Source of the DNA: Elsinoe ampelina
Lineage: Eukaryota
Reading direction: 5' to 3'
Assembly: GCA_010093995.1 (NCBI GenBank)
Contig: ML992505.1
Location: 411,433 to 475,432, forward strand
DNA: 64,000 bases
Part shown: piece by piece, positions 1,150 through 24,559 of the stretch
Layout: each line of letters begins with the position of its first letter
Position numbering within the stretch: the first letter of the stretch is position 1
Program-made: the position numbers and the translations under genes
The notes under the pieces: model-generated
What the model was told of the DNA's origin: nothing
The model's database searches: none
What the model saw: only the letters and a program-made list of their open reading frames with translations

Positions 1150-3720
1150 TGCTTAGAATACTAGCCTCTAACCTTAGCAACGTTATATAGTAGATCTTCG
1201 TCCTTATTATACTCTTCTTCCTCGTTAACCTCTTTATTACTTAAACTATAGGTAGTAATATCTCTAAAGTCGTTACTTATACTATCTATCCTACTATTAG
1301 TATTATTGTCAGCGGTAGTAAAATTGTCCGTCTTAGCCGATTAGATGTTTTAAAGATTATTTTCTACTAGCTTAGAGACTATAATTTATCGAATTGTCTA
1401 CGGAAGTAGTCTATACCTTTAATTACTAATAATATTCTTCGCTACATTAAAAACACATTTAATACCTACGCTAGTAATTAGTATTATAAGAATATTACAA
1501 GTAACATAAGCTAGTTATAGGAATAAGTACTTATTTTCTTTCTACTAAGAAAGAATATTAAATTCTAATATTTCCTATATAGGTAAAGTTCTAAAGTAAT
1601 TCTCCTCTTCTATCCTTATTATATAGATATTACTCTACCCTTACGAAAGTATATTATCTTAGCTAGATACTAGAGGTGTAAAGCTACTCTCTATATTCGA
1701 TAAGGAAGGCTTCTTAAACTAGTAAGTAATAGACAAGGCTAGTAGAGGAGGTAGAAGAGTAGTTTAAGAAGGGTAGTTATTATTATAGCAATCGAGGTAG
1801 TTAAGGAACTATTTATAGTAAAGTAATTTAAAATATAGTTCCTACGAAGTATACTTATATATACTAAGTTTCTAAGTTAGATCTAAGATTATACTATAAT
1901 TAAACAGGAAACCTTAACCTTTACTCGTTTACTTATAATACTTAGAAAGCTTAGTATAACTAGCTTTCGCTATATTTTGTATAACTAATAGCTAGTCTAA
2001 GTTATTGTCCTCTTCCTAAGTAGACTTAACTATATTAAGGAAGTCGAAAAGAGTATTATATATAAGCTATATATATTATACTAATAGCGTATAAGACTAA
2101 CTTAGCTAGTTAGTTATATCCTTAAAATTCTCTAGTATTTAGATAACAATCTTTAGATATGCCTATTCGGCGTAGCTAAGGTAAAGGCGTTTTATATCTA
2201 CGTAATTAATAGATGCTATATCTTAATTAGCTAGCGCTTTGTTAGTTTAGAGCTTATATGTAATTATAATCTCCGCGTTAAGCTATTTATTAATAATTAG
2301 TTAAAGTTTAATAGCTTGCTTATATATATTATATATTAAGTTCTAATAGGTATAAATGTCCTAAACGACTAAGAGTTATTTACAAGGAGGTAGATATACT
2401 TAAAGGGATTTAAAGTATTAGTAGCGTTAAGGGGATTAGTTAATTATAATACAAATTATATAGAGCTTTAAAATTAGTTAAAAAACTATAAGAAAGAATT
2501 ATAAGAAATATAACTTACTTTATAGAGGGAATTTAGAACTAATAGAGTTATTTAGATATTATAGAGATACTACTTCTCGAGCTTATTAGCTTTCTTATTG
2601 TCCTTAGTAGTTTCTAGCTATAGAGCTTAAATAATATCTTATATAATAAGATTAATTATGTAGGCTAGATATAGAATTATATTCTTAATAGAGAACTAGT
2701 ATATACTTTTCTTCTTAAGACCTTATTGTACTTTAGATCGTAGAGTGTTATTATTGCTTATATTATCTACTATAATAGTAAGAAGGCATATATTAATCTT
2801 TTTTTCATTTAGAACCCTTAGTAGTTCTATGCTAAGCGTAACTCTAGTATACTATCTACTAATTAGTATAAAATCTAGTAGGCACTTACGTACTTACTAG
2901 TTATTGTTAATATAGTATACCTTTATAGCTACAAAACTTAGATAGTTATTCGTAGACTAGCTATCTAGCACAATTAAAACTTTTGTCTAACTACCGAGAT
3001 TAGTAAGAAGATTAGACTAAATGTCCTTATAGTGCTCTTTTAATAGCTCTAAGGCTCGCGTTCGACTTAGAACATTAGTATATAGCTAGAGGAAATATAT
3101 AAATTAGAGAAAGAAGGAATTATTAACTATTTAGAATAACTAATTATAATTAATAAGGACCTTAATAAGCTCTTTTTTAAATTGTTCTAGGGAGAATTAT
3201 AGTATACGAGATATAGTGCTAGTAGCGTTCGCTTTTAATTGTGTTAGAGCTATCTAAGCTACTAATCGTTTATAGCTAGGAGATTTTGTATTCTAGTAGC
3301 TTTAGCGTCCGAGATGTTTTATTAGGTGTTTATTACTAATTAAGTTCGTTATTAAGTGTTATAAAGCTCTACTATAGTAGAGACAATATATAAGAGGTGT
3401 TCTATTAGCAAGTTTAGCACCTTTATTAAAGTTAGCCTAAATAACTCTACGGCGAGTTATAGAATTCTAGTTTAGTAGGTTTTGTGTTCCGCTAACCCTT
3501 AATTCGCTACCTATTAATGTTATAGGCTACTATATTTTCTAGGCTTATATAGCTAGCTATTCTTCGAGTAGTATATCTAGTTAGTAGAGTAGACAGCTAA
3601 CAATTTTAATAGTTTTATAGAATCGAGTAGAGGATAGATTATTCTAGTAATTAACACGGAACTCTTTAAGCTTATAGAGGAGAGGTAGTAGTAGCGTAAT
3701 AACTTCTAAGAGCATCTATA
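1150..3720 (-). pseudogene. hAT transposase (RIP-inactivated)
   Basis: De-RIP translation shows a zinc-finger-like CLHC..LQHP...GTKHL..HL (about 3320-3400) and KVSIALDGWS..HLSFVAIK.YYINDNWQ (about 2870-2985). It also shows IPCLAHIINLVVQD (about 2635-2680), DVxTRWNSTYDM (about 2325-2362) and the C-terminal dimerisation domain ILSWWKEN..LFPQLARVARDILAIP.TSVGVERVF (about 1440-1560). Confidence 0.92.
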
Positions 3721-3784
3721 GTTAAGGATCGACTAAGTCTTTATTAAACACTAATATTTTAAGAGTAGAGATATAGAATATTAC

Positions 3785-4247
3785 TATTACGAACTGTCTA
3801 AACATAGTCTACGCTAGTAGTCTAAGCTAAGCTAAGAACGAGGTAGTTCTACTTCTATAGTAGTATAGTACTAAGGTAAGAGTCGGAGAAGGTATGTCTT
3901 ATAGATAATAAAGTACAATTAGATAGTATTATAAAGGCTAGCCTTAGTAATACTAGTGTTCGCTATCTAGACAAGGTTAACTATAGTACTTACATAAGGT
4001 AAAGACTATTCCTATATATATATATTCTTCACTATATACTCTATATACTCTATATACTCTATAGCGAGAGTTAGGAGTAACATAGAGTACACGTCTACTA
4101 GTAACCTATACGCTCTATAGTTTTAGAGGTAGAGCCGCTAGAGAAGATAGAGAACTAGGTAAATGTCGGGCTAGGTCACGTAATAACCTTAGTAGTTTAA
4201 TTAGTCCTAACGTCCCTACGCTCTAGCTATTCTACTAGTTTATAATA
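3785..4247 (-). repeat. Gypsy 3' LTR (463 bp)
   Basis: Near-identical to 15664-16117 apart from transitions and one extra CTATATACT unit. Confidence 0.95.
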
Positions 4248-5959
4248 TTACTCTCCTCCTTTAATCGAGTTGTCCTAATAAGTAAGTATCCTTTCTTATC
4301 TTTATACGCTATATACTAAATATGCCTCCTAGTTATTAAAGGTATAGTAAATCTAGTACCTCTATATAAAAGAATTTCTCGGAGTTTATTAAGCTATTCG
4401 GAACTAATATACTATAGACTTATTCTCGTTACAAATCGAAGAGGCTAGACTATAAGGTCTATATTCGGTTAGGTATCTATAGCTAGTATGTCGCAAGTAA
4501 CTACTTAGGTTATAATATTTAAGTAATAAAATCGGAATAGTAGTGTCTCTAGTCTAAGTATATTCGTTTACGAAAGGAATTAGTTATAGCTAAGGCTACT
4601 AGAAGAAGAGCTAAAGAAGCTTATAAAAAGGCAAAAGAGGCTTATTAAAGAGCTATAGGTAATAAGCTTTACCTATGTAAAGAGATATAAAAGTTAGAGG
4701 ATAAGGTAGAGAAAGTAATCTCTTTAAAGGAGACTTGTATTTAAATCCTAGAGTAGAAGGAAATGCTATTGTCGGTAGATCCTATCCTACTATAGGACTA
4801 GTAATTATTTATGTCTAACTCTAACTAGAGTTCTCTATTTAGTAACGATTAAGGTGCTTTTATTAGCTAAGTAATCTTCCTTAGACATTCTCGTTTTTGT
4901 TTAGTATTAGAAGTACTAGGTCTGTCTAGTTAGTTTGCTTAGGATAGGTTCTCGATCTAGTAATCTAGAATTACTTATAAGGTAAGGTACTTCTCTAGTT
5001 CCTATATTACTTCGCTATACTAATGTCCCTTCTAGTAAATAAGATAGTAGCGTTTTTCTTTTATAAGTTTATAATATAAAATCCTTTCGATCTTATACTA
5101 TAGCTTCTATGTTTCTTTATCTAGTTTAATAGGTCTAGGTATAGCGTTCTATAGTGCTCTCTCTAGTAGTAATATATAGAAGACTAGATAGATCCTTATA
5201 TGTCTTAGTAGTTCTAGTTTATATACGTTCTTGTTTTTCTTTTCTAGGATTTTAAAAGGTCCTAGTTTAGTGTAGTTAAGTTTCTTACTTAGTCTTTTAG
5301 TCTTAATGTTCTTACTAAGGAGATAAACCTTCTCTCTCTCCTTTAGAATTAGTCCTATAATTCTCTTCTAGTTAGTAAACTCTACTATTCTTTATAATAT
5401 AAATACTATATCGTAGTATAGCTAGTTATATAGTTTCTTAATGTTAGCTACTAGTATATTAGCATCCTTAGATATTAGCTTAATTCCGAGTATATCGTAG
5501 TATAGATCTAGGTATATTCTATAGTTTACGTAAAATAGTAAAATTCTATTTACTGACTTTCTATTATTAATAGCGAGCTCTATAAGTAGTAATAGCGTTA
5601 CCTATAAGTCTTACTTATAGTTTAGGTAGCACCGTAGGTACTACTCTAGTACTTAATTTGCCTATTTAGTTTATTTGTCTATTTATAGATAAAAGAAGGT
5701 TAATAGCTTATGTTTAACTCCTAGTAGGTCTATAAATAATTACTAGAATTGTAACGTAAATAGCTTATTCCTATTAGTTATTAGGTCTCTTAGTACTCTA
5801 TGTTATAAAATAATTATTCGAAGGAAGGTAAAGACTATATCCTCGGTAATTACTATTGTCTTATATAGTATAAAGTAGTAATACTTCGTAAACCTATCTA
5901 CTAGAACTAGAATGCTATTATACTTTATACCTATAAGAGGTTCTTCTAATAGTAGTAGA

Positions 5960-6162
5960 TGTTAAGAATATAGCTCTCTCTAGATAGTTAGGCCAGGAAG
6001 TCACATGACCTGTAGTTATATAATGCTAAGGCCTAGAGATTCATAAGCTATTCTTTCTTCTAGTAGATAGACTCCTTAATCAATTAACTCGTCTATTACC
6101 TAACTAGTGTGCGGATTAGTTCTATATAATACTCTACCTCTAAACGTGCCTTCCGCTTAATA
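5960..6162 (+). repeat. Copia 5' LTR
   Basis: Direct repeat of 11073-11275 with TGTT...AATA ends (de-RIP AACA). Confidence 0.95.
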
Positions 6163-6174
6163 GGTTATAAGCCC
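6163..6174 (+). promoter_or_regulatory. Copia primer-binding site
   Basis: GGTTATAAGCCC (de-RIP GGTTATGAGCCC) abuts the 5' LTR and is the motif typical of fungal Copia PBSs. Confidence 0.75.
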
Positions 6175-6299
6175 GGAGCTTATAGCACTAGTATAGGATT
6201 GTATGTAAAGCAGTTAAGCATCTACTTTATTAAAATTAGGCCGGATTCCCTGGTATACTCCTCCGTATCCCCTTTATTATCCAATTCTAGACAGATTAG

Positions 6300-9200
6300 T
6301 AGAGGCGGTATAAAGCGTAAAAGACTAGTTGCTTAGTGCATTAAGTAAGGACTCCCTAACGTAGTCTAGCACAGGTTTTAATCCTGTAAACGCACAACAG
6401 CTGCTGTTTATTAGCTGTTATTAACTAACTAAATAACACCTCCGACAAAACCTTTTCTCTCTAAGGCTAAGCTAGCCTTATTAACAAAACAACAATCTTA
6501 AAGGTCATTTATTAAAAGGAACCTAACCTTTATCTATTTATTTAAATTTTCTTCTCTCTTGGAACTTATCCTTAACTATAGAGGACAATAACACCTAATT
6601 AAGGCAGCTAGTACTAACACTCTTAAAGGACAACTATAAGAAGTAGTTCTAATAGATAGAGCTCTAGCTAGCATCTAAGAAGGTGTTATAGACCCTTAAT
6701 TCCCTTACTAAACCACTAGTAATGACTCTAGGGTTATTATTAGCTTCTTTATTTAACTCCTAGCACTCTCCTTAGTCAGTAGAGAAGAACAGTGCTGCCC
6801 TTTACTAGATCTATAGATATATCTTAGAAAGAGATTAAGAGATGATTTAGGAATAGTAGTAGGCTAAACTAGCTTAGGAGAAGCTAAAGAGCAAGTACAT
6901 AAAGTAGACAGGTATATAGGTAAGACAATTATAGAGAGAGTTTATTACATACACTATAAGTAATAAGACAACTATCTTAGAAGCCTAGTTACACCTAACT
7001 ATGTTAGGAAGGAGGATTAATAGATCTTTACAAGTTAAGTAATACTCTACACTAACAACAAGAATCCAAACTCTACTTGCTACTCTTCTAGCTTTATAGT
7101 TATCTACAAGGGATGCCCTAGATGCTTAGCTACACCTTAGTATAGATAAGATCTATAATATCCTTAAGGAAAAGGAAGCCTAGAAGGGAGAAGGGGAATC
7201 TACTATGTTTATAAGAGGTAGACTACAAGGAACTAGTAGGAGCTTAAGCTATATATATATCTTATGTAAGGTATCTAGACATATAGTAATTAGATACCCC
7301 TAACTTTAACAAGCTAAGAAGCATGTCTAGCCTTCCTATAGAGTTACTAAAAGAGCTAGTTCTATAAGGAGATAGTCACCTAAACGCTAGGAGCTGCTTA
7401 AACTTATAAGACAGCTCACTAAGAGGATAGATTCTCTAGAAGTAGCTAAGTTAAAGAGGAAAGGCAAAGCCTATCTAGCTACTAAAGGAGGATTACTATT
7501 AACATCTCTATCTCTACTACTAGAGGTTCTTTCTAGAGGTAAAGAGCTTAAGACTATAGGTTCTACATTAGAGGTTTAAGGTAAGCTTCTACACTATTAG
7601 TAGATACTTGACTCTAGAGCGTCTAACTATATAATAGACAGGCTAACTCTCTTTAGAGGCCTATTAAGCAAGATACGCACTCGATAGATCCAGGTTAGGG
7701 AGGGTTACCTTTAGTTATAGTCAATAGGAACCGCTGTTATTAAGACTAAGAAGAGAGATAAGATAAAGATATAGGCTCTTTATATACCTAATCTTAGTAT
7801 TAATTTAGTCTCCTATTGCAAGCTATATATAGATTTAGGAGTTTCTAGAGTTCTTAATTTAAATTCTTTTCTTGTCCTTAATTTATAGAAGTAGCTACTA
7901 CTTAAAGCTAGAATTCGAGGGGGGGTATATATTATCTAATCCCTCTTTAAGTAGTAAGCTAATTAAAAGCCGCATTCTAGATCTAAGCCCGGCTTAATTC
8001 TAGATCTAGCTAATTAGGACATAGCATTCCTTACTACTTAGCTAGTAATTACATTACACACTAAGTACGCACATCTAACCTAGGATAAGCAACATAAGGA
8101 TCTTATTGATTTAAGATCTAATAACTCTAAGATAGAGTACTAACTCTAGCATAGGAGATTTGCTTACCTTGGAATTAAGAAGCTAAGGGATCTTTATAAG
8201 GTTATAACCCTTAAGAAGCCTATTAACTTAAACTATAATCTATCGATCCTATATAAGGTCTGTTCCCTTACTAAAATAAGGAACAGAAGAGGTAAAACCT
8301 TATAGAGAAGACTAGAGGTTCTTTAGCTTATCTATGCTAACATCTGTAGCCTAATTAAAGCAAGCAGGGAAGGGTTTAGATACTTCCTTAAGCTTATAGA
8401 CAGCTATTTAAGGATAATATAGATTATGCCACTTAAGACAAGAGATAAAGCCCTATAAAGGCTCATTAAGTAGAAGCTAAGGGTTAAGAAGGAGAGTGAT
8501 ACGAAGGTTAAGGTCACTAGGTTAGACAATGCTAGTAAGCTTAATAAGATCCTAAAGTAGTAGGAGCGCTAAGAAGGTATCTATTACACAACTACTAAGC
8601 TATATAATTTAATCTAGAATAGACTAGTAGAGAAAGGCATCTAAACCTCAGAGAATAGTATAAGAGCAATGCTTAAGGACTTAAAGATGCTAAATAAGTT
8701 CTAGCCTAAAGTAGTTTAAGTAGATACATATCTAAGGAATAAGACAGTAACTAGACCTAAGATTAATAGTAAACAAGCTACACTAATTAAAGCCTATATA
8801 GGCATTAAGCTATTAGTTAATTATATTAGAGTCTAGGGCTATAAGGTATATACCTATATAAACCTAAAGTCTCTTCCTATATATAGAAGAAAAGACAAGC
8901 TTATAGACAGAGGGAGAGTAGGAGTATTCCTTAGCTATATAGATAGAACTAACAGGATGTACAAGATATAGGCACCTAATAGGAAGTTAGTAATTGTATT
9001 ACTAAATATTAAGTTCTCTAAATTTGAGAAAGGTAGTAATGTTAATCTTAGTATTAAGATTAACACTACAAGCAATTAGGCACCTATTAGGAGACTAGTT
9101 AGGAGACTAACCTAGATTCGAGCCCTGCTTAATTCTAGGATAGACTAATTAAACTAGCCTATTTAGTAAGAAGCGCCTATAGGGAGAATCTTCTTATATA

Positions 9201-11040
9201 TTAAGATCCTAAGGGTTAACCCTGTTAACCTTATAGATTTCCATCGTAGAGAAGAGCTAATAGTACAATCTAGACTATCTAATTAAGCAGGCTAATCACT
9301 TAAGAGATTAAGAGATAAAGGGTCTAATAATAAAGAGCCTAAGGCTAAGCATTATAGAGCGTTTATTGCTAAGTGTATTAACTAGCAAGATGAAGATAAT
9401 AAGATTGCTATAACAGCCTCTATTAAGTAATATGTTCTAATCCTAAGGGACTATTATAAGGCTGTTACTAATCTAATATAGGGAAGCAAGTAGTAGGAAG
9501 TAATTAATACTAAGCTAAATACTCTAGGATTAAATAACACATAGGAAGAGGTTGTTCCCCTAAAGGGATCTAACTTAGTAACATCTAAGTAGGTCTTTAA
9601 TGTCAAGTACAATATAGATAGCTCCATTAAGAAGTTTAAAGCTAGACTTGTTACTAGAGGCTTCTTATAGAAGTATAGTATTAACTATAAAGACACATTT
9701 GCACTAATAGTTAGAGTAGATACACTAAGATTGTTCTTTGCTATCGTATGTATACTTGACCTTAAGTGTCACTAGGTGGATGTTAATAATACCTTTATAG
9801 AATTATTCCTTAGGGAGGTTATTTACATAAGGCTACTACCTAGACTTAAGGTCTAACCTAGTATTGCCTTCCGGATTCTTAGGAGCTTATATAGACTTAA
9901 GTAAGCTACTAGAGATTAGAATTAGCACTATATCTCTAAGCTCTTAAAGCTAGGCTTTACTTAGAGCGAAGTAGACCCCTGTCTTCTTATGCACTATAAC
10001 AAGAAGATTATTCTCTTAGTTTATGTTAATAATATACCATTTATAGTATAAAGCAAAGAGAACATCTAGTAGTTTAAGCAAGAGCTTAGTAGAACCTTCA
10101 AGATTAAGAATCTTAGTAAGGTTAGTAAAGTTCTTAGTGTTAAGGTTATAAGGGATAGATAACAAGGAACCTTAAGGCTTAACTAAACCTACTATATAGA
10201 TGATATACTATAGAGGCTTAACATGACCTCTAACAAGGCTACTCTAATAAAGTAGCTAATGGACAATAAGCTCCCTTAGAGAGCTTAGACTAAAGATATA
10301 AGGTTTAGTAGAACTAAGTACTTATATGCTATTAGAAGCTAGATGTACCTTAGTACCCTAACAAGGCTAGATACTGCCTTTGCCTTAGGAAGGCTTAGTT
10401 AATTCATAGCAGATCTAATAGACAGCTATACTATCAAGATAAAAAGGATGTTAAGATATATTAGATCAACTAGAGATCTAGGCATTATATTTAGAAGGAA
10501 TAGCAACAAGACTCTTAAGGGATATTCTAATTTAGATTATGCCTTAGATAAGACAGACAGAGTCTCTATTCTTAGATATGTCTTTATACTTGTAGGTAGT
10601 CCTATTAGCTAGATAAGTAGGAAGTAGAAGTCTGTTTTAACCTCTACTATAGAGGCTAAATATATAGTAATATACTCTTATGTAAAGAGATTATAGTTCC
10701 TATCTCAGTTACTAAGAGATATAGGCTGTTATAAGATAGTTAGTTAGTCACCTTAGAAACCAACTATAAAGGAGTCTTAGAAAGTAATAATAAGATTACC
10801 TTTCACTACTAAGATTAATAGTAATAATTAAGTAGCTCTTTCACTTGTGAAGGAGCTATATACTTATAAAAGGGCAAAGTACATTAATGTTGCTTACTAC
10901 TACGTTAGGAGGCTATAGAGGGACTAGAGGATATAGGTTAAGTTTGTAAGGACAGTAGACATAGTTGCTAATAGATTAACTAAGCCGTTATAAGGTTAGA
11001 ACTTTATAAGATTTGTAAAGTAACTTAGCTTATCATTAAT
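6300..11040 (+). pseudogene. Copia gag-pol polyprotein relic
   Basis: De-RIP LWHRRFAHLG (about 8144-8173), KFKARLVARGFSQ..GIDY.DTFAP (about 9630-9708), LVYVDD (about 10016-10035), GYSDSDYA (about 10520-10545) and KHIDVAYHYVR (about 10877-10910). Confidence 0.94.
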
Positions 11041-11072
11041 CTAATAGCTTACCTATAGGAGCTAAGTAGAAG

Positions 11073-11275
11073 TGTTAAGAATATAGCTCTCTCTAGATAG
11101 TTAGGCTAGGAAGTTACATAACCTGTAGTTATATAATACTAAGGCCTAGGGATTCATAAGCTGTTCTTTCTTCTAGTAGATAGACTTCTTAATTAATCAA
11201 CTCGTCTATCACCTAACTAGTGTGCGGATTAGTTCTATATAATACTCTACCCCTAAACGTGCCTTCCGCTTAATA
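11073..11275 (+). repeat. Copia 3' LTR
   Basis: Direct repeat of 5960-6162, followed by TSD GTAGA. Confidence 0.95.
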
Positions 11276-14200
11276 GTAGAGGTCCTATAAAGTCTATCGT
11301 AACTAATTACTATAGTTTGTCTAGTAGTAGTAAGAGTTATAATAGGCTATATAGCTTATGTTATAAGTGCTTAGACTTATAGTATATATTACATGTAGTA
11401 ATATATATCTTAATATTGTTTCGGAGTTCTTTCTATAGGTAGTTTTATATAATAAGTTTAATAGTCTTATCGATCCTACTATGTCCCGCTATTAGGTTAT
11501 TATAGTATATTTAAATAACTTCTTTCTTCTGTTCTTATATAAGCTCCTAGGTAAGGCTATATAACTACTCTACCTTCGGGTACTTATAGACTAAAGCGCT
11601 ATCTTGCTACTTTAGTATAGAGGCCTCTATTATTGTTATATTCTTTAAGTAGTCTAGTTATCGGCTAAGAGCGTCTACTCTACTATTCTCTAATCTCTTA
11701 ACATAGTAGATCTAAAAGTTATAGCTTATAAGTGTTTCTAACTATCGAACCTATTATCTATTAAGAACCTTAGTTATTGTCTAATATAATAGGTTCTTAT
11801 AGTTAGTATAGACTTACATAGGTAAGGTTATTTCTTCTAGGTATACTTTCTACTTACGGAATACTTCTATAATTATAAGTAACTCCTTGTTATATATATC
11901 GTAGTTAAGTTTAGGTCTAGTTATTTTTCGTAAGTAATATATAATTAGGTAGCATTATTCTTCTATATCCTTCTACGCTAGATACGCTTCTATTATAAAG
12001 TCTAAGGCATCTATTTCTAGTAGTGCCTATCGGTCTAGGTCGAAGAGTACTAGGATAGGTACTATTATAAGTCTAAACTTTAGCTCCTTAAAGGCCTACC
12101 TATATTTTTCGTTAAAGACAAAGCTAGTTTCCTTTTTCGTAAGGTTAGATATTAGCGTAGCTACTCTAGAGAACTCCTTAACAAACTTATAGTAGTAGTT
12201 AAAGAACTCTAGTAGCGCTTAAACCTCCTTAACTATTATAGGTTCCGGCTAGTTATTTACTAACTTAATCTTCTTTAGATTAGGTCTAATACTATTAGTA
12301 GATATAATATAGTCTAGAAATTGTATCTTATACTTATAGAACTTATACTTAGAGAGTTTTACTAGTAGGTCTTTCTCTTTTAGTTTCTATAGTACTTTAC
12401 AAATATGTCCTATATATTTATTATACATCTTTAAGAAGATAATAATATTATCTAAATATGCTAAGACAAAGTTGTCGAGGTATTCTTATAGAGTGTTATT
12501 AATTAACTCTTAGAAGGTTACGGGAGTGTTAGTTAACCTAAAGAGTATAACGAGGTACTTATATAGACTCTATCGTGTCCTAAAAGCCGTTTTCTACTCC
12601 TTACTCTCCTTTATTTATACTTAATAATAGGCATCCCTAATATTAATTATAGTAAACTATTTAGCTCTAAGAAGTTAGTCTTAAAGTTTGTTAATCCTTA
12701 GTAGGGGATAGTAATTCTTCCTAGTAAGTGCATTAAGTTTCTAGTAATTAATATATATTTATAATGTCCTATCCTTTTTTAGTGTAAAAAGTACTCCGTA
12801 CGTAATAGGTAATTTTAATAGTTGTATAAATCCTTTAAGTAAGTACTTATCGATATAGTTCTTAAGAACATTCTTCTCTTATTTCGATAGTAGTATAAGA
12901 CCTTAATAGTATGTTAGGGATTTACCTTCTTTAAAAGGTATTTCGTAATTCTATAGTTTATATTAGAGTAAGGCTATAATACCTTCTCTTTCTTTAAACA
13001 AATCCTCGAAGTCTTTATATTCTAGCGGAAGTACTTAGTTACTTACGCTAGTAATAGCTCTAACTATTAGTCGTACCTATACTATTCTTATAGTTAGTAT
13101 CTATAGAGCCGATTATACTTTCTACTTTCTATAATTATACTTAGGGAATTCGAGTGTTCCTTTAATCTAGTCTACGTCTAGATTATGTTATTAAAGCTAG
13201 TCTATACTAAGTACTATATTATACTACATGTCTACTATATCAATTAATCGTTTTTCTATATATGTTCTAATTTTAATTATAACGTTTCGTAATTCCTAAG
13301 TTACTTTCCTATTCTTTCCTATAGAGGTTCTATCTACTATAGTAAGTAGGTAAGGTAACTCCTTCTAATGTTAATAAGGTTTAAGCTAATTAGTAACTGT
13401 TATAGAGACGTAGCTATAGTTAGCTCCTAAATCTATTATTACTCTTACCTTATTTCCTTATATTCTAACTTCTAGTATAAAGTAATTTAACATATAGATC
13501 TTTATTATATTAAGGCTTTAGCTAGTGTTATTATCTTACCTCCTTAGGCGACAACTAGCTAGTTTTTTATCATTGTAGCTCCTTAGATAAATAGCTAATT
13601 CCTTTCTATACGTATCTACTATTAGTACTATATCTATTAGGTAAGTTATATCTTGTTGTTATTTAATATAATAAGGTAAACTTCTAGCGCCTAAGTTCCT
13701 TAGTAACTATAAAGTCTAATAATTCTCTACTAATTACACTAAGTAGTAGTATATACCCGTATAGGTATAACTACTCCCTCTAGGTATAGCTAGGTATTTA
13801 TGTTAAAGATAAATACAAGTTAAGTAGATTTATATTATTGTGTTCTATTCTAGTAGTAGGTGTATATTATTATATAGTTTCTCTATATCTCTATAAGGTA
13901 TACCTTAAGTCGTCTACCTAGTAGTAGTATATTATTATTGTTATTGTCGGATAAGTCTTTATCTATATTATTATATTATAGTCTTTTAGTGTATTCTTCG
14001 TTGTATTTCTCTTCGTCGCTACTACTCCCGGTATAGTTATAGTTAGTAAGGCTATACTAAGTACATTCTCGTACTTAGCTATAGGGAATAGTACTACCTA
14101 TTTTAATTACTAAGAAGTCCGTAGTATATTTAAGACTAATAGCCTCTTCTCTAAGTATATTGTGTAAGTAGATAGTATAGTACTATTTATAATCTAGATT

Positions 14201-15663
14201 TGTACATTTCTAGAGCGATATATAATATGCCTTTCCTTATAGTTCGCTATAAGAGCTAAAGGTAAGGCTACTATATTATTATATAGCACTTACGTCCTAA
14301 TACTTTATTTCGATAATTGTATATTAGTGATTATTACTAACTACCTTCTAAGGTTAGTTAATGTTACTACTAATTATAGAGAGCTCTTCTAGGTTAGGTT
14401 TCTAGTCTAGCTATTTCGTTAGTTACCTACGCTTAGATAGCTTATATAGGAACTAACTAGATCCCTGCTTATCTAACAAGTGAATATAACAAGAGTTATT
14501 ATAATATACTATCTATAATAGCGTTGCATGTTAGCTTTATTATTTACTATTAGTCGTAGAGATATTAAGTATAATATTCGGAGAGAATTCTATTACCTCT
14601 TAAGTTGTTATAGACTTCTTCTATATTTCCTTACCTATACTAAAGGTCGTTAGGTCTTCTATAGTAGTATTAGCCTTTTTTTCTACTAGCCTAGCAACTA
14701 TTATATATAATCTATCGGCTAGCGCCCCTTATTAGTAGTCCCTAGCCCGATACCTAAGTCTTTTACACTTAAAATATAGATTGTCTTATCTATACTTCTC
14801 TCTCTCTTTTCTACTAAGGAACTTTCCTCTATAGCCGTAGCCTTATACCTATAAGAGGCAGCCTTCGTATATAGTATTAAGTTCTATAGGGTCTCTATAG
14901 TTTCGGGAGGAACGCGTATATCTAGTATTTACCTTATATTCTCTATAACGTTCTATATGTCGTTTATAGAGTTAGTTATTAATAGTAATTATAGTATCTA
15001 CTAGTTCTTAGAGGCTATTAGGTAGCTCGAGTATTATTTAGTCTTTAACTAAGTCGCTTAGTCCTTAGTAGAATACTAAATGTTTAGTACTATTATTCTA
15101 GTCTAGGTATATTATAAGTTATTAGAACTAGGAATAGTACTAGGCTATAGACCTACGTTGTTATAGTTATTAGATCTTTATCGTAGTAACGTACTCCTTA
15201 TTAGATATGTTAAAGACTTACTTAATCTTTGCCTAGAAGATACTAAAGCTCTTAAAGATAGCCTTTATATCTAGGCCTAGTTATCTATCTAGGTAGCTAC
15301 TTATATAAGGCTCGAACTACCCGAAGGTAGCGCCTTTTAGGTATATCCCGGCATAGAGGACCTTTACTACGTTATTAGCGTACTTATCTCTCTCTAGGGT
15401 AAAGAAGGCTTTAAGTTAAACAAGAAAGCGCCTTAAGTAAGCGTAGTCCCCGTAGAAGAGTTCTACCTCTAACTTAGGCTTACTCTATTCTTCCCTTATA
15501 CTAAGAGACCTTCTATGTTTACCCGAGGTTAAACTAGTAGTAGATATATCGTTAATAGTAAGCTTTCCTAGCTTACTAGTAATTAAAGATACTAATAGTA
15601 ACTTAGAGTAAGAGTTACTTATTAACCTTATAGCGTGCTATACTATAGTAAGGGTAGTTAAAA

Positions 15664-16117
15664 TGTTATAAACCGTCTAAATATAGTCTACGCTAGTAGT
15701 CTAAGCTAAGCTAAGAACGAGGTAGTTCTACTTCTATAGTAGTATAGTACTAAGGTAAGAGTTAGAGAAGATATATCTTATAGATAATAAAGTACAATTA
15801 GATAGTATTATAAAGGCTAGCCTTAGCAATACTAGTGTTCACTATCTAGACAAGGTTAACTATAGTACTTATATAAGGTAAGGACTATTCCTATATATAT
15901 ATATTCTTTACTATATACTCTATATACTCTATAGCGAGAGTTAGGAGCAATATAGAGTATACGTCTACTAGTAACCTACGCGCTCTATAGTTTTAGAGGT
16001 AGAGCCGCTAGAGAAGATAGAGAACTAGGTAAACGTTAGGCTAGGTTACGTAATAACCTTAGTAGTTTAATTAGTCCTAACGTCCCTACGCTCTAGCTAT
16101 CCTACTAGTTCGTAACA
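15664..16117 (-). repeat. Gypsy 5' LTR (454 bp)
   Basis: Begins TGTTA and ends GTTCGTAACA, followed by TSD ATTAC. Confidence 0.95.
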
Positions 16118-16289
16118 ATTACTAGCTATATAATAAGGAGTAGAAGACTATAAGAATACTCTATAAGAATCTATTAGCTACTCTTAATTTATAGATTAAA
16201 AAAATTTTAATAGTGTAGAACTAGAAAGCTACTAAAACTATAGTCTAATTTTTCTAACTTAAGGTTAATCTATTTATTCTTATCTATAT

Positions 16290-17560
16290 TGTCCTTACTC
16301 TTACTCTCCTTATTATTATTATTACTCTTATCTATTGCCTTATTATTATCTTTATCCTAATTCTCTTTATTAGAATTGTTAAAGTCTTTAGTAGTAACTA
16401 CCTCGTAGTATATTTTAGCTACTTCCTTAGTCTTATACTTGTTAGGTTCCTTATTAAGAAGGTTCTTAATCTTAGAGTTGTTCTTAACTTCTTCTTTAAC
16501 TTTGTTATTACTATACTTAACATAGTAATTGTTAGATTTAAGTAAAATATTATTATTCTTATACTTAAATTCTAGTTCGGGAGTAGATTTATATTTACTT
16601 TAATAGATTAGTATATAACTATAAGAAACAACTATAAGAAATAATATATATCTAATTATCCGCCTATACTACTTAGAGTTTAGTAGGTGTTATATTCTTA
16701 ATAAACTTCTTAAACTTAGCTTAGTTACTATTATTATAGTTGCTAGTATTATATAGTAAGTTAATACTATTACGGTAGATCTTATAGGTCTATTTCTTAA
16801 GAATTCCGCTAGTGCTAAGAAGATATTTTACTTAGCAATTTAGAAATATATTTATCTCGTTATAGAGCGCCTTCTTTATATAATTAGTAAGGAGTTACTT
16901 ATAGCAAAGAAGAGTATTAGCTTTATAGATACTACTTTATTTTTAGTAGATAGATATAAACTTGTCCTCTAACTATTCCCCTATATAGAATTAGTAGATA
17001 TACCGTAAGAATATGCTATAAGAAATATACTACTCTACTAGGTATAATAGCAAGTCTCCGCTATCTTCTTATATACTATATTAAAGGTAGCTTCTTTCTC
17101 CTTATCGAACATTACTTAGAATTCCTTAGAGTTCTTAAGTTTTGCCTTAAGTATACGTTTTATAGAGCAATTAGCATTACTAGTAGTAGTAAGGGCTTTC
17201 TCCTCTATACTAGCTTATATAGTATAATCTCTTTATAAAATAGCTCGCTAGGTATTACTAAGCTATACTTTCTACTATAGAATTCTAAGGGGGTAGCTAT
17301 AGTAAGAAGTTCTAGTATTCTAAAAGCGATTTTTAATTTAGTATTTAATCTTATCGGCCTCGGAATTAAAACTCTATAGTCTAGTTAGTATTTAACTATA
17401 AGAAGCATCTATAAGAATTACTCCTATTATAGTAAGAATTACTTCCTCTTCCTTAGTTATTTCTTTAGTCTTAATTACTAAGGCATTAGTTATCTCTTTC
17501 TCTTTACTAAAGGTTTACTAATCTACGAGATTAGTAGATATTATAGATCGAGAATTAGTA
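16290..17560 (-). pseudogene. RIP-degraded unknown cargo ORF of the hAT element, divergent from the H3-like gene
   Basis: Continuous protein-like minus-strand frame (e.g. KRILKAKLKNSKEF.VMFDKEKEATF) with an acidic low-complexity C-terminus. No family recognised. Confidence 0.45.
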
Positions 17561-17917
17561 GTAATTTATAAGAGAAGGTAGAATATTAAGTATAATAGAG
17601 AGCGAGATATAAGATATAAGTTTTATAAGGAGAAGATAAGAAGAGAAGAATTTAGTATTTCTTATATATATAGTAAATAGAGTAGCTAGGAATATAAGTA
17701 ATAATAGGTATTAATCCTATTATTATACTAATATAAAGTTGTTAATATTGTTAATATAAAGTTGTTATAGTAGAGAATAACAATATAAAATTCATATTCT
17801 ATATACTATTATAAATTCCTTAATAAGGCTTAATATCTCGCTCTTAGTATTTTCGCCTTGCTCTTCTCTACCTTTATAAACAAATTTTAATAATTAATTT
17901 AATAAATTTATGTAGCT

Positions 17918-18499
17918 ATAGCTTATAAGAAGCAAGTAACACCTCTAAAAAGAGTAAAGCTAAGAAAGTAAGGCACTAAGAAAACTACTACTAAAAAGCC
18001 TACTATAGGTAGTTACGTAACAAAATTTAGACTAGTATTAACTAGACAAATTTACTAGGCGAAGAGCTACAGGTTTAAGCTAGGCAGTTAGTTTCTTATA
18101 GTAAATTCTTATAGTCTTATATCTAATATAGTATAGCTATTACTCTCTAAGAGATTTATCGCTACTAGAAGACAACTAAACTTCTTATATATAAGCTTCT
18201 CTTCTCTTGTGTTATTTATAATATTACGTAAGATATTAAGTTAACACTTATAAGTAGAGATTTACGCTTTATACTAGATACTATTAAGTGTCTCTAGGAA
18301 GTAAGTAAGGCAATACTAGTAGAATATTTTAAAGGTATATTAACTATGCATTTAGAATATATAATACCTTATACTAATAACTATAGTAGACTATAATCTT
18401 AATGCTATCTATACTAAGCGTTATACTATTATATAGAAAGACTCTTAGCTTACTAGGAAATATTATAATAAGTACTACCTACTTGCTTTCTTTAATTAG
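17918..18499 (+). pseudogene. Histone H3-like gene (RIP-inactivated, intron-containing) carried in the transposon
   Basis: De-RIP translation across GT-AG introns: MARKKQVA...[48 protein letters not shown](STLMSG)DLRF..DAIECLQEASEAMLVEYFE D(C)NLNAIHAKR.TIMQKDSQLAR. Confidence 0.92.
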
Positions 18500-18568
18500 T
18501 AAGACCTCTCCTCTATAATACTATAAGAATAGACTATAAGAAATAGGTAGGTTTATTTTTATATAGAC

Positions 18569-18595
18569 CGTCACGAAATCCCTAAGCGTAGGGAG
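18569..18595 (+). repeat. Left TIR of the Plavaka element
   Basis: Inverted match to 42347-42373. Confidence 0.9.
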
Positions 18596-18651
18596 TTAGA
18601 ATATTAAGTTTCCCCGTGTTAGACTAAGTTTAACTACGTTAGGTCGCTGCA

Positions 18652-18738
18652 AACGCATTCTACCTACCTAAATTTAGTTCAACGCACCCCTACCTACTTG
18701 AATTCAGTTTAACGCACTAAACCTACCTTAATTCAGTT
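18652..18738 (+). repeat. Three ~29-30 bp subterminal tandem repeats
   Basis: AACGCA..CTACCTAC.T.AATT.AGTT unit repeated three times just inside the left TIR. Confidence 0.8.
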
Positions 18739-18859
18739 AAAGGCGTTAGCGAGATTAAGCATAGAAGCGCTTTTATAAGGGCATAAAAGTAGACATTTCC
18801 TGCTTAGTTCTCTACCTTCTAACATAAGTAATAGACTAAACTAAAATAACCTTGTTTTA

Positions 18860-20420
18860 TTATACTCTACTATCTCTGCTCTACTACTAAGGGGCTTAGT
18901 GTCGTTAGCTACAAGCAGTTTCGTACGACTATCTAGCTAGGGACTAAGCTTATTCGCAACGAGAAGTAGCTCTATATAGCTGTCGCCTATAAGTTCTGCT
19001 ACCTAGCAACCCGTATCGTTACTAGTGTAGAGGACCCTTACGGAGTAGTATTCCTAAGCTAGGGTCGTAAATGTAAAGTAGCGTTCCTAGAAAAGGAGTT
19101 CGTTATAATAGCTAAGGCTAGGTATAAGATAGAGTACGCATACCTTTAGGTCTGTTCTAGTAGCTATTAGTCTATAGTAGTTACGTAGGAGAAGAACAAC
19201 GACGGAAGCTAGATATACTACGTTAATAGCGGCCGTAGTAGCGAGGTTAAGGCCTACTCTAAGAAGATTAATACTAACATAGACAGGTATAAGAGATGTA
19301 GTAGATATCTAGTTTAGGTTAAGCTAACTTCTTTTAGGTCGACTAACACCGACTAGTACACCTACTAGAAGACGCACTTTAGGGCCGCTAAAGAGTAGCT
19401 TTAGAAGTAAGGCCTAATAGATCTCGGTATACTCTCGGAGTAGCCTAGAAGGTAGTACTAGGGACATCTACCCTCTATTAAGGGGAGCTACCTTATCCTT
19501 ATACTGCTCCCTCGATTGCCTTACTACACGATATAGCCGGCAAGAAGGTAACTACTAATAACTATAGGCTTCTTCCCCTCTCTCTCCTTAACCTCCTCCT
19601 AGCTTAATACTAGCGTTAGCCCTCGCCTTACTAGCCTGTCTAGTGCTAGTTCCGGCAATTAGAGAAGTAAAGGAAGCGGCGCCTAGGTTAAGCTTACCGC
19701 TCTTAAATGTAGTACTATATATTAAAGACAAGGCTACCTTAAAGCGCACTAATCTCCCTAGCGTAACTCGCTATAAGGTTGTACCTATAGTAGATAAGGC
19801 AGCGGTAGTAGCTTCCGCGGAGGACGTAGTAGTAGTAGCTTTAGCTATAGTATACCTCCCTATAGCGGAGGGCGCGGATAAGGGCAGGGGGGAGGAGAGA
19901 AATATCCCTTATACAGAGGCAGGTATAATAATACTTTCTTTTACTATATCTCGCCGCTCTACTACAACTACTACTAAGTAGTAGTAGTAGTAGAGCTAGT
20001 AATAGTACGTATAAGAATAATCTAGTTTATAATCTTATAGACAGGATCTGTCGCATATATTATACACTAATAATCTTATAAGTAAATACTTACGATCTAC
20101 GTAGATATAGAGGAGGCTTTAGGGGACAAGGAAGAGGCTACTTACTATACTAACGAAGATAACGCCTAAGTTTTCCCTCCTCCTAGGCTTAAGTAGCTCT
20201 ATACCTATGTCACGTAGCTACTTATAGTTATAGTTATATACTATGTTGTCCCCTACTCCCTAGAAGGCGTTAAGTAGGAACTCTCTAGCGTTGTTACTCT
20301 CTATAGGAGTAAGTCTTTCTTCGATAAGCTTCCTGTAGCTAGAATAGATATTAAAATTAATAAGCATCTTTCGGAGAGAGTCTTATAAGCTAGTCTCATC
20401 GGGGGACTTATAATAGAGAA
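18860..20420 (+). pseudogene. RIP-degraded unknown cargo gene convergent with the transposase
   Basis: Long protein-like plus-strand frame with GT-AG intron-like interruptions (about 19287-19338 and about 20000-20044) and an Ala/Pro/Gln-rich region. The ORF-track hit 19643-19981 is a surviving piece of it. Confidence 0.45.
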
Positions 20421-20779
20421 GGAGTAAACCTCTTAGATTGCTAACCTAAGTCTATCTACGAAACTGACCTAATAACTACTTATTTACCTACACTTTTCAC
20501 CGCCGTTGCAAAATATATATAGGATACTTAAACTTCTTAAAGGCTAAGAGACATCTACAACGCCTCGCTATAATTTCCTAAGCTATTGTAATTAGCATAG
20601 GGGTAAACTAGCCCTTTAACGGGAGATTGTTATAAGGCGTCTTATGCCGCCTACTATATATAGTTCAGCGACTAACCTAATGACATATAGGTGTAAACTA
20701 ACTAGCTAGGGTAATACCTACGGATATTATCTTATCCTTTTTACCTAACATAGTTTAGTAGTTGACCTAAGCGTACCTA

Positions 20780-23700
20780 AGGCGAGGCGGTCGACGTAAG
20801 AGACAACTATTCTAGCTACGGAAGAAGTGCTTAAGCTTCGTTAATACCTCTTACGCTTACTAACTACGCCTAGGGATCTTAGCCTCTCTCGTTTAGAAGC
20901 CTTAGCTAGGTAGAGCTACTTAGACTCCTACGACTTATTCTATAGTATGTTATATGTGTTAAAGTCGGCTATATTATTAATGTATATCTAGCTATTCGGC
21001 CTTATCTTATCTACTAGCACGACGTAGATACTATAGTAGATTTACGAAGTAGAGTAGACACGCCTACTAGTAAGTGCGTTCCGTCTAGCTCTGTCACATC
21101 GATTTGTCTAAGGCTTAATTAGTGTTATACTATGCTCTCGATTAGCTACTCTATCCGGCCGAGTAGGCTAGTATAGATCTACTAGCGCTCCTGTGTAGTA
21201 TAGGCATTAACGTCGACCCGATCTACTAGACTAGAAGCTATCCTCTATAGTTATTATAAACACAATTCGAGCTAGTAACTTACCTTAGAGGCTATCGGGT
21301 AATGCTCCGATAGTGCCTTTATTATTCGTTGTCTATTCTTGTACCTAGAGCTAGTCTCGCCTCTTATTGCTACGTATCTCTTGCTATTTAGTTATACACT
21401 AGATAAAGTTTAGTTTATCTACATTAGAATTATTAGGATTACAGTCGGATAGCTTCCTACACTTTAAAGAATAGTAGAACTTAACGCGGAGGTCGCTAAC
21501 CTAGGAAGAATTTAGTTTAAGTCTATCGGGATCTAGTTCGGCATTAAACTAATTAGGGTGTTTAGTTATTAAGCTAGAGCCTATATTAGCTATACCTTAA
21601 CGAGCCTCGCGGACAAACACCGCTATTACTTGCTATAATAATAGCCTAGGTAGCATGTTAATAAGCGCCTTTAGTTCTCTAACTATACGCTATATAGCTC
21701 CCCCCTTAGCACTAGGCTAGCTAAACTAAGAAGTAACATTAACTATATTACTTACGCCAACCGGCGTACTTTAGATCTTAATTAGTTTAGTAGCCGATAG
21801 CCTAACTAACTTCGAGGGGTTATCGAATGCCGCTAATATATTTACTAGTTTAGTGTTATAAGTAGTAACCTAGTCTTCCTATCCGGCCTTCTTATTTGTA
21901 AGTTTAAAGGCGTCCTTAATAAAGCAGACATAGTTATGCTCTAAATAATTAGAATCGAGGCTAGTAACTACTCTAAAATCATAGATAGCCTTTAAAAAAT
22001 GTATTATTAAGTGCTATTTCGGAAAGTTAAAGTTACTCTCTTCTTTCTTGTCGCTATAGTAGGCCCGGAAGGTCTCTTTATACTTGTTTATTCTAAAGAG
22101 CGCAAGGTTAATATACTAAAGTATATTGTCGTTATAGGTCTTATAGTTTGCTAGTAATATAAAGTCGACTAGTGCGCGTATAAATTTAATAGCTTAAGGC
22201 GCCTTAACTTTCTCGAGTAACAGTATAAATACTAGAAGTATCTAGCGTATAATACTCTTCTACTCTTGACCTGTCTATTGCTTAATAGCCGAGTAGTGTA
22301 GGAAGTGTTAGATGCTAGGAAACACTAGTATACTATTAAAGCGCTTATCGATGATATTAAGTACAATCTCCTTTGCCGAGCGCTAGTAGCCTATTCGCTA
22401 CATAGTCTCTCTAGCCCTTATATACCGTAGTAATTTATATGTAGGTATTAAATCCTAGAGCAATTTTCGAATCTAGCGTAGGACGTGTATTAAAACGCCT
22501 TTAAGAAGTTAGTGTAGAATATCTAGCACTATTACGTAGTAAATATTAGTACACGGAAGATCCTACGTAAAGTAACTAACCTTATAAACCTAAGAGCTTA
22601 TATCTAGCTTTTCGCTCTACTACTAACTCTCGCGTGCCTCTCTCTATAAGCGCTATTATTGCTGCGTAAAGTAGTAAGTTCGGAATAGTGTAGTAACTAC
22701 TAGGTCCTCTCTCTCGTCTTTGCTAATAAGGCAGCTTATATAATAATATAGTAACTTTATACCTGTTATAGTGACCTATTTAGCGTAATCCGTAGGTATA
22801 GTAGCAAGTATAGGGAAGCACCTCCGCCTCTTTCTATCCGTATAGGAGATTGTTTCGCTTCCTCTCGAGTAGTAATCGACAACGGGGTTAAAGATTTTCT
22901 TTATATAAGCGTAGTAGGTCTTCTCCTTAACGACATTTCTACTGTCTTTAATAATAGAAAGTAAGCCGATTAGTAACTACCTCGGCTAGTTGTTGCTATT
23001 ACATGCTTCTACCTTTAGGTTGCCTAATAATAGATAGATAGCATATGCTACAAGATTCCCTTAATAGTTTATTACCTAGGTCTAATCACTCGCGACGATT
23101 AATGGGATAATAGTAGCTCTAGCTATCCTAAGTCGCTCTTGTGCGTCCTACTACTAGTTGCTACTTACTATTTTAGTGTATACTTGTCGTAGCGGCTTAC
23201 TCTCGATAGCTTCTATAAAGACTCTATATAGGCTATAGTCTATGTCTACTACGAAGCTACGATAACTAAGCAAGAAGCGTATTGCTAGGAGGATATTTAG
23301 ATACTAGAACGTATGTCTTTTAGGCCTACAATTAGTGTTTAGTATAAAGCTCAAGGTCTACTAGCCATTAATGCCTCCGGCTACATCTAAATTTTCTATC
23401 TTCTCTACTAGTTCATTCGTAGTTCGCTAACTAAGGCTCTCTACTAGAGGTTATATACGTAGGTCTTTAAGCAATTACGTAATTACGGCTTTACTAAGTT
23501 TTTCCTTAACGAGCTACTAGGCAAGACTAGCGTCTATACTATTAATAAAGGCTTCCTTTAGTTAAGTATCGCCTAACTAATTATAATTTAGTTCATTATA
23601 TATGTTAGTACACATGTTATGCACTTAAGGAGATCTAGACAACGTTAGTCGATATAGACTAAGCATAAACTATGTCTATTACTAACTCTTCGCTACTAGC

Positions 23701-24378
23701 CGGTATACTAGTAACTGTCTCGAACGTAATACAATCGGATATAGCTCTACTAGACAAGGACAATCTCCTAGCACTCTACCCCGTAGATGTACTACTAGTT
23801 GTGCTTACTATAATTACTTACTCTTCCTCGTGTATGCCTTCTCTTATAACCTCTTCCGTGCCCTTCTCTTTCTTATATACGATGTAGCCGAGCCTACTAC
23901 TACTATCGCTGTCTACTCTACGTGCTAGGGGATAATAGTCAAGGTCGGTAAAGAGACTAAGGGGATTGTCCGCCGTAGTATACTATATAGTAGGCAAAGG
24001 GGGGAGGACACTCTATGCTAACTATAGACTATTATCTCTACCTCGTTATTTAGTTCGGTTCTTAGTCCTTATAGTTAGCGGCGGAGTTAAGTAGACTACT
24101 AGGTTATTTAGCGTCGGCGGATTATGCTATATATTGCTACTAATGCTACGTTATTAGTCTTTATTAGACAGTAAGCACTCTCCCTTATTAGAGAAGAGAG
24201 AGTTATTACTAGCGTTGTCTTCGCGGAGATATCTATTAGTATATTAATCTAGTAAGACTTACGCCTTGTTACTTATTAGCAGCTCTCTCCTCTAGTAATA
24301 TAGTAGATGTTAGACAAGGCCTCTACTAGATTATATAATCTTTCTATAGGCCGAGCATTTAGTAATACGCTTTAGCAT
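20780..24378 (-). pseudogene. Plavaka transposase (RIP-inactivated)
   Basis: ATG at 24378 followed by a C2H2-like CSACGK....GLVQHL. De-RIP motifs RVYTEMASGDWWWDAQ (about 23140-23190), IIPLIVASDQTQ...G...AYAIYLSLGNL (about 23020-23112) and CADGKRRRCFPILAAMPADYAEQ...TGIK (about 22755-22845). Further motifs are PDILHQLLKGV (about 22495-22530), QWTGQEQK (about 22258-22282) and FNFPK.H (about 22010-22035). Confidence 0.9.
23658..24125. repeat. ~470-bp direct repeat, copy 1 (inside the transposase N-terminal region)
   Basis: Readily alignable at nucleotide level with 31006-31470. Confidence 0.92.
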
Positions 24379-24559
24379 GTTAGTTCTTGTCGCTTAATAT
24401 TTGTATTTATAGTTAGAATTAGCGCTTTAGATTTGTAACGATAGTAGGAAGTAAGACGTTTAGGCGCTACATTATGTTAGTTTACCTAAAAGATAGTTTA
24501 ACATGCACTAGCACCTAAATCGGTCTACTAAACTAAGGAATTATATTCTTAGGTAATAC

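Follow-up and report, generated by a model that had tools for sequence, protein, structure and literature searches.

A RIP-killed histone H3-like gene in a split hAT element of Elsinoe ampelina, probably of the same lineage as Pyrenophora tritici-repentis H3L

Here we describe an H3-like gene in a 64,000-nucleotide (nt) stretch of the Elsinoe ampelina genome (GCA_010093995.1, contig ML992505.1, positions 411,433 to 475,432; hereafter the window). The copy of the gene in the window is dead and without present function. We consider it very probable that it represents 'H3L', a passenger gene of a hAT transposon that was killed by RIP, and that it descends from the same diverged lineage as the H3L gene of Pyrenophora tritici-repentis (Ptr). 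According to the history that we propose, the gene would not be a fresh capture of the canonical H3 of the host, but would belong to a lineage shared with the intact, expressed Ptr H3L, and its own branch would have gained a five-codon insertion in loop 1 together with a different N-terminal tail. The hAT–H3L element would have multiplied to roughly tens of copies in the genome, RIP would then have riddled every copy seen with C>T and G>A changes, and a long terminal repeat (LTR) retrotransposon would later have landed between the transposase and the central open reading frame (ORF) of the copy in the window. The shared derived residues were read by eye; that the entire element has an ancestor in common with the Ptr element, as well as any former function of the gene, is what we infer.

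Bases 1 to ~43,500 of the window form an AT-rich block with a GC content of 0.27–0.39 and RIP indices of 1.78–2.18 for TA/AT and 0.16–0.44 for (CA+TG)/(AC+GT). The corresponding values in the gene-bearing remainder of the window are 0.51–0.53, 0.46–0.58 and 1.25–1.32. The H3-like gene sits within this heavily RIP-mutated AT-rich fungal block, and positions 17918–18499 alone have a TA/AT index of 2.03 and a (CA+TG)/(AC+GT) index of 0.26. The GC-rich part of the window contains a myosin motor domain (870.8 bits) in a long ORF at 49266–56045 (+), and a run of 95 N (56517–56611) lies after this ORF. For the analyses below, RIP was reversed by undoing C>T and G>A changes codon by codon, and the reachable residues were listed for each codon. 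Other genomic copies were represented by contigs from two public DNA runs of the same organism (X1 and X2), placed on positions 13000–25000 at 80% likeness; X1 and X2 derive from one sample, which is possibly the source of the window itself, and do not constitute independent support.

The H3-like reading frame comprises four exons and three introns on the plus strand (Table 1), and is split over two frames in a translation of positions 17850–18560. The gaps between the exons, of 42, 50 and 55 nt, each begin with GT and end with AG, and the boundaries of intron 1 carry the greatest uncertainty in the gene model. The joined exons amount to 435 nt and are in frame, with seven internal TAA or TAG stops and a terminal TAG; all seven internal stops are reachable by RIP from Gln, Arg or Trp codons. 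With X placed at the stops, exon 3 matched the Pfam Histone family (PF00125) at 21.9 bits, under the gathering score of 26.4, and also matched solved histone H3 chains (E values in Table 1). The latter alignment requires a five-residue insertion between K79 and D81, in loop 1. The gene thus has an H3-type histone fold. These results bear out a sequence-only reading of the same DNA, which had proposed a complete, intron-containing H3-like relic at 17918..18499 with about five extra loop-1 residues, and they set the number of extra residues at exactly five. The insertion holds a 10-nt palindrome, which is unremarkable, as the AT block contains 3.5 such palindromes per kb.

Several residues of the relic can be constrained from its codons. 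Position 68 is TCT (18205–18207), for which the RIP-reversed ancestors are only Ser or Pro, and position 107 is TAT (18392–18394), for which they are Cys, His, Arg or Tyr, with Cys reached through one reversed G>A change. The ancestor sets exclude Gln68 and Thr107, in agreement with the earlier claim that Ser68 and the non-Thr residue at 107 cannot arise from canonical codons by C>T or G>A alone. Position 84 is TTT (18268–18270) and encodes Phe, which had likewise been read as kept, and Trp is unreachable from this codon by RIP reversal. The tail had been reported to start with MARKKQ; this stands as a de-RIP reading, in which Met and Arg are reachable at codons 1 and 3, but not for the actual letters, which read IAYKKQ (ATA, GCT, TAT, AAG, AAG and CAA). 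Past position 135, the gene continues for seven extra codons (LLAFFN and a stop). Two presumed RNA runs, searched for transcripts at 80% likeness, yielded merely two and one tiny pieces.

Table 1 Features of the split hAT element, the H3-like gene and the nested retrotransposon in the window
Feature	Position	Strand	Basis
hAT transposase C-terminal dimerisation domain relic	1374..1607	-	Pfam PF05699, 31.1 bits (gathering score 21.4), E 2e-7
Presumed rest of transposase relic, up to the retrotransposon insertion site	1608..3784	-	Size fits a hAT transposase; dyad at 2486-2507
LTR retrotransposon, nested, outside the hAT element proper	3785..16117	-	LTRs, target duplication, RVT_1, gag
Right part of the hAT-H3L element	16118..18584	.	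Depth plateau; copies crossing the empty retrotransposon site; terminus taken to be Ac-like
Central ORF relic, 421 codons, K/N/D/E-rich C-terminus	16270..17532	-	One frame with far fewer stops than the other two
H3L exon 1, N-terminal tail	17918..18016	+	Letters read IAYKKQ...; no ARKS reachable by RIP reversal
H3L exon 2, alpha-N region	18059..18086	+	Compatible with YRPG
H3L exon 3, alpha1, loop 1 and alpha2	18137..18334	+	Pfam Histone E 2.2e-4; PDB H3 chains E 3.2e-6
H3L exon 4, last part of alpha2, alpha3 and C-terminal residues beyond the canonical stop	18390..18499	+	Translation, codon sets
Loop-1 in-frame insertion, 15 nt (5 codons)	18241..18255	+	HMMER gap of 5 versus H3
Dyad motif in H3L intron 2	18093..18114	-	Alignment, motif scan
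Dyad motif, other copies	2486-2507, 16148, 16619, 17396, 18521	+	Motif scan
Terminal inverted-repeat-like end, TAGGGATTTCGTGACGG on the minus strand	18568..18584	-	Located at the depth drop

The H3-like gene lies inside a hAT element, as the sequence-only reading had proposed, and the evidence consists of the hAT domain, a nested retrotransposon that splits the element in two, flanks that are contiguous in other copies and a shared dyad motif. The hAT dimerisation stretch at the left of the window is the only one that tblastn detected in the window, and the presumed rest of the transposase gave no Pfam match at E ≤ 1. Closer to the H3-like gene, the only relics revealed by the first Pfam scans were those of a Plavaka transposase on its right side and of a reverse transcriptase and gag on its left. 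A six-frame Pfam scan of 12–24 kb, with frames of 4,000 residues, found no hAT domain and missed even the histone match, and further six-frame scans found no hAT domain in 14.0–17.9 kb or in 42.3–44.4 kb. The central ORF has no Pfam family, merely a weak match to DUF7891 (13.8 bits), and a word-indexed protein search returned no relatives of it. The element thus combines a hAT transposase that includes the dimerisation domain with a central ORF, and the order is transposase, central ORF and H3-like gene.

The two LTRs of the nested retrotransposon (3785–~4246 and 15664–16117) are 92.6% alike; their first two bases are TG (TA in the left LTR) and their last two are CA, and a perfect 5-bp target duplication, ATTAC, is present at 3780–3784 and 16118–16122. 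On the minus strand, the retrotransposon contains an RVT_1 domain at ~12305–12737 and a weak gag match at ~15055–15274. The repeat to which this 12.3-kb retrotransposon belongs is more abundant than any other observed; its summed depth, 80,000–195,000, is 10–20 times that of the hAT part. Contigs of other copies that align from 16118 rightward carry '...ATATAGAAT' at their left, which is the sequence of the window just before 3780. Since these copies cross the empty site, the H3-bearing repeat continues to the left of the retrotransposon, and the 12-kb gap between the hAT domain and the H3-like gene exists because the retrotransposon is nested in the element. With the retrotransposon left out, the stretch that begins with the hAT domain and ends at the right terminus measures 4,874 bp, corresponding to a restored element of ~4.9 kb or more.

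The summed depth of the contigs forms a plateau over 16208–18613, of ~8,000 in X1 and 11,000–15,000 in X2, with sharp edges. The repeat to the left of this plateau is far commoner (80,000–195,000) and the repeat to the right is rarer (800–2,400), and single contigs in low-copy stretches have a depth of ~130–350. The H3-bearing repeat is present in roughly tens of copies, a figure that is depth-based and not a true copy number, and all copies seen carry mutations. Depth was measured from 13000 rightward, and we infer that the repeat is continuous over 1374–3784.

A dyad motif, CTATAAGAA-N4-CTATAAGAA, occurs six times in the window, and every occurrence lies inside the split element, as compared with 0.00 expected in 100 shuffles. 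In addition, 57 nt of 2456–2510 resemble 16589–16643, linking the left and right parts of the element. The dyads are spread over the whole element and not just its ends, which is unusual for hAT subterminal repeats; they may be candidate transposase-binding or regulatory repeats. At its right end, 85 bp past the stop codon, the element terminates in ...CGTCACGAAATCCCTA, which we take to be an Ac-like hAT terminus, and the depth falls at this point. The 17-mer at this terminus recurs inverted at 42358–42374 with one transition. Neither a left terminus nor an 8-bp target duplication was found, a scan for paired terminal inverted repeats and target duplications giving 0 candidates. A scored scan of positions 1–1500 for a left terminal repeat gave nothing above background, and terminal repeats sought by local alignment were no better than those in shuffled sequence.

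These observations bear on the alternative that the gene is not transposon cargo at all, but a RIP-mutated copy that arose from a resident H3 variant gene by segmental duplication and happens to lie beside unrelated transposon debris. The distance of 14.5 kb between the gene and the hAT domain in window coordinates, and the failure to find a complete pair of terminal repeats or a target duplication, would be consistent with such a duplicate. It is nevertheless opposed by the sharp edges of the depth plateau, by the hAT-like terminal sequence 85 bp beyond the stop codon, by the occurrence of the dyad in the H3L intron, the central ORF and the transposase part, and by the nested retrotransposon with its perfect target duplication, and we see scarcely any chance that it is correct.

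Further terminus-like sequences were observed around the right end. At 18568–18608, a spacer of 4 bp separates the hAT-like terminus (...GAAATCCCTA) from a second, opposite-facing terminus-like sequence (TAGGGAG...), and the same back-to-back junction occurs in inverted form at 42335–42374. Inverted TAGGGAG ends delimit the interval 18589–42353, and outward-facing 17-mers lie on either side of it; the interval may represent a large element with terminal repeats and the Plavaka relic inside it, or may reflect a larger rearrangement. The Plavaka-family transposase relic itself, at 22478–23330 (-), matches PF18759 (108.8 bits, E 4.2e-31) and lies in a region with a GC content of 0.385, which is less AT-rich than the hAT element. 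On the other side of the gene, 96 bp upstream of the H3L start, the right-terminus 17-mer is present in the same orientation at 17806–17822 (-), with RIP-type transitions and one transversion. At that tolerance, 0.37 matches to the 17-mer are expected per whole window, and this match could be due to chance, or could mark an older inner terminus, in which case H3L would lie between two termini.

We next compare the relic with canonical H3, using as a reference 53 H3 cores, which were taken from proteins of at most 140 residues containing an exact 42-residue canonical stretch, with all others dropped; a residue present in at least 10% of the 53 cores was counted as canonical. Over positions 45–135, 42 of the 91 residues are unchanged, 30 differ in a manner that RIP can explain and 19 are not derivable by RIP. 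The differences among the genomic copies comprise ~1,039 transitions and ~50 transversions (X1 and X2 contigs at 80% likeness, positions 13000–25000), and since transitions dominate, non-RIP change since amplification has been rare. The 19 positions, together with the almost exclusive occurrence of transitions among the copies, uphold the earlier suggestion that the captured histone was already a distinct variant before RIP. In the loop-1 region, no indel was present among the other genomic copies listed, and the 15-nt insertion is therefore probably family-wide in the E. ampelina genome.

An explanation of the relic as a RIP-mutated pseudogene of canonical H3 was considered and rejected. Its core is indeed similar to canonical H3, in that 72 of the 91 positions are identical or RIP-derivable, but the other 19 positions, the 15-nt insertion and the C-terminal extension rule this explanation out. 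Stop codons are not removable by RIP, and the extension past the canonical stop is therefore not a RIP product.

A transposon-borne H3-like gene of comparable setting is known from Ptr. According to the accessible part of Manning et al. (2013, PMC3538342), the Ptr hAT–H3L element is 5.6 kb long and contains a transposase, a central ORF and H3L; a 2.3-kb derivative exists, and there are 26 near-identical expressed copies. The element in the window resembles the Ptr element in its gene order and size (about 5–5.6 kb), its dimerisation domain and its intron-bearing H3-like gene. To place the H3-like gene itself, the codon ancestor sets of the relic were compared by eye, with no computed alignment, with the proteins in part 1 of Table S10 of the same work. 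Ptr canonical H3 and Ptr H3L (PTRG_00559) differ at 30 positions over 45–135. By eye, the relic fits only H3L at nine of these (68 S, 70 V, 95 A, 102 G, 103 Y, 107 C, 110 N, 124 S and 130 Y), of which 95 and 102 are weak H3L marks, their residues also occurring in other canonical H3s. It fits only canonical H3 at ten (52, 58, 62, 74, 77, 82, 109, 131, 132 and 134), both proteins at three and neither at eight. Across all 91 positions, the by-eye comparison finds the relic incompatible with H3L at 24 and with Ptr canonical H3 at 23. The relic is thus no closer to H3L overall, and the case for H3L rests on shared derived states, namely S68, V70, Y103, C107, N110, S124 and Y130, along with the LLAF C-terminal extension.

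Neither the relic nor Ptr H3L has an ARKS motif in its tail (the Ptr tail being read by eye). The two genes also differ in several respects. Ptr H3L has no loop-1 insertion, whereas the relic has five extra codons there, and the Ptr tail extends for 63 residues before T45 and has another sequence, whereas the relic has ~42 codons and hence no long tail. In Ptr, the copies hardly differ from one another and are intact and expressed, unlike the window copy with its seven RIP stops, and the relic keeps the canonical residue at ten positions that are changed in Ptr H3L. Relative to the H3L family, only the loop-1 insertion appears to be new, and the pattern as a whole looks like that expected of two branches which split from an H3L ancestor that had itself already diverged.

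Similar features might have arisen if a hAT element had independently captured a host H3 gene with its introns, in which case the likeness to Ptr H3L would be due to convergence or drift. In line with such a capture, the relic retains the canonical residue at 10 of the 30 positions that diverged in Ptr H3L and has a tail of near-canonical length, and the Ptr and Mycosphaerellaceae events are treated as independent in the accessible part of Dhillon et al. (2019, PMC6710886). However, seven identical derived states (68, 70, 103, 107, 110, 124 and 130) at near-invariant positions, in combination with LLAF, are very unlikely to have arisen by chance, and the gene order and element size match those of the Ptr element. 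We accordingly judge an independent capture to be highly improbable and retain common descent with Ptr H3L as the preferred reading.

The other known case concerns hAT-amplified H3-like repeats in Mycosphaerellaceae (Pseudocercospora fijiensis and five others), for which the accessible text describes intronless retrocopies, often two per element, in a 9.5-kb element that has DUF659 and in which no dimerisation domain can be recognised (Dhillon et al. 2019, PMC6710886). These repeats share with the relic their confinement to AT-rich blocks, their amplification by hAT and the inactivation of all copies by RIP. The relic differs from them in having three introns (GT–AG, 42–55 nt), and is thus not intronless; its element, moreover, carries one H3-like copy and has a dimerisation domain. 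The same source, as far as accessible, calls the Ptr H3L event recent and independent of Mycosphaerellaceae, and its survey of other genomes used predicted protein sets.

A comparison of a representative protein library with the RIP-damaged pieces gave 19 matches at E ≤ 0.001, all to ordinary or duplicated H3 except for one 79-residue protein (P0018). We considered P0018 and six close relatives as possible kin of the relic and rejected them: their loop 1 is also five residues longer, but has another sequence, and they have W84 and Q68. Together with P0020–P0025 and P0139, P0018 makes up a small family of predicted H3-like proteins, encoded on very short public contigs, in which loop 1 is five residues longer, position 84 is Trp and RIP-like substitutions occur (R to C/W/H, P to L and E to K). 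The loop sequence of the family is unrelated to that of the relic, and the proteins may stem from a further repeated family, of H3 or CenH3-like type, in some fungus. A word-indexed search of longer proteins with exon 3 matched nothing. Our literature search found no description of a loop-1 insertion or a CenH3 reading for a transposon-borne H3, and the text of a 2025 preprint on Ptr ToxB contained none of the strings 'histone', 'H3L' and 'transduplicat'.

CenH3 proteins are characterized by a long loop 1 and by the loss of Q68, F84 and T107. Malik and Henikoff reportedly stated in 2003 that CenH3 has a residue other than Phe at position 84, namely Trp in the fungal proteins. A published abstract describes an extended loop 1 as the usual state of CenH3, though not as a requirement. 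The relic resembles fungal CenH3 (CenH3/hH3v) in being a histone-fold relative of H3 whose loop 1 is extended and whose tail has diverged, and the sequence-only reading had interpreted it as CenH3-like, with the loss of Q68 and T107 as a diagnostic feature. Under this interpretation, the transposon histone would have evolved CenH3-like properties before RIP, and a CenH3-like or otherwise specialised deposition would have helped the element. It draws on a loop 1 that is five residues longer than that of H3, on the absence of Q68 and T107, which RIP does not explain, and on an insertion that seems family-wide, no loop indel occurring among the other copies listed.

The comparison does not support the interpretation as a CenH3-like histone. 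Phe84 is kept in the relic and cannot have been Trp, whereas Trp84 is present in all three fungal CenH3s in the accessible part of Table S10. The loop 1 of these CenH3s is three residues longer than that of H3, and its sequence is unlike that of the relic. Two of the three (Ptr and S. nodorum) keep Q68 and one (N. crassa) keeps T107, and the loss of Q68 is thus no CenH3 mark in these fungi. Both residues are replaced in the relic, but the replacements, S68 and C107, are inherited states common to Ptr H3L and are therefore non-discriminating. Of 21 positions with CenH3-specific states, the relic fits only four (57, 78, 95 and 121) by eye. Moreover, H3L was placed outside both H3 and CenH3 by its authors (Manning et al. 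2013, PMC3538342, in the part accessible), and the relic is multi-copy in a repeat within a transposon, with all copies seen mutated, as opposed to the single essential gene expected of CenH3. Ser68 and the non-Thr residue at 107 would therefore appear to be marks of the H3L family and not of CenH3, and on the residues compared the likeness to centromere histones appears superficial. We regard a CenH3-like histone as quite improbable.

The relic also bears on how transposon-borne histones are viewed. In the accessible part of Dhillon et al. (2019, PMC6710886), such H3-like genes of Dothideomycetes are treated as recent, independent captures of a housekeeping gene. The combination of shared derived residues, retained ancestral residues and a loop-1 insertion of its own suggests that the H3L lineage may be older and more widespread than this 'recent capture' view implies, and that it would predate the Ptr expansion. 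The relic shows that the H3L histone fold kept evolving while riding the transposon. Since RIP destroys the reading frame, surveys of predicted proteins would miss such copies, and the 2019 survey, based on predicted protein sets, would not see a relic of this sort. The relic in the window is a new dead member of a known H3L kind, and nothing is left of the CenH3 angle. Should whole genomes confirm the age of the lineage, they would provide a dated series for asking whether a transposon can maintain its own histone variant.

A more far-reaching reading, which we put forward as speculation and think unlikely, is that H3L is an old transposon-encoded H3 variant lineage, carried by hAT elements under selection across fungi and building variant nucleosomes that evade or dilute silencing. 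The tail devoid of ARKS (the context of K9 and K27), together with the changes at 107, 110, 124 and 130, would then enable such nucleosomes, so that heterochromatic silencing near the element is evaded or diluted; these four positions presumably cluster at the H3:H3′ four-helix bundle. The loop-1 insertion would represent a lineage-specific retuning of the choice of chaperone or partner, and RIP would then have ended the experiment in the E. ampelina genome.
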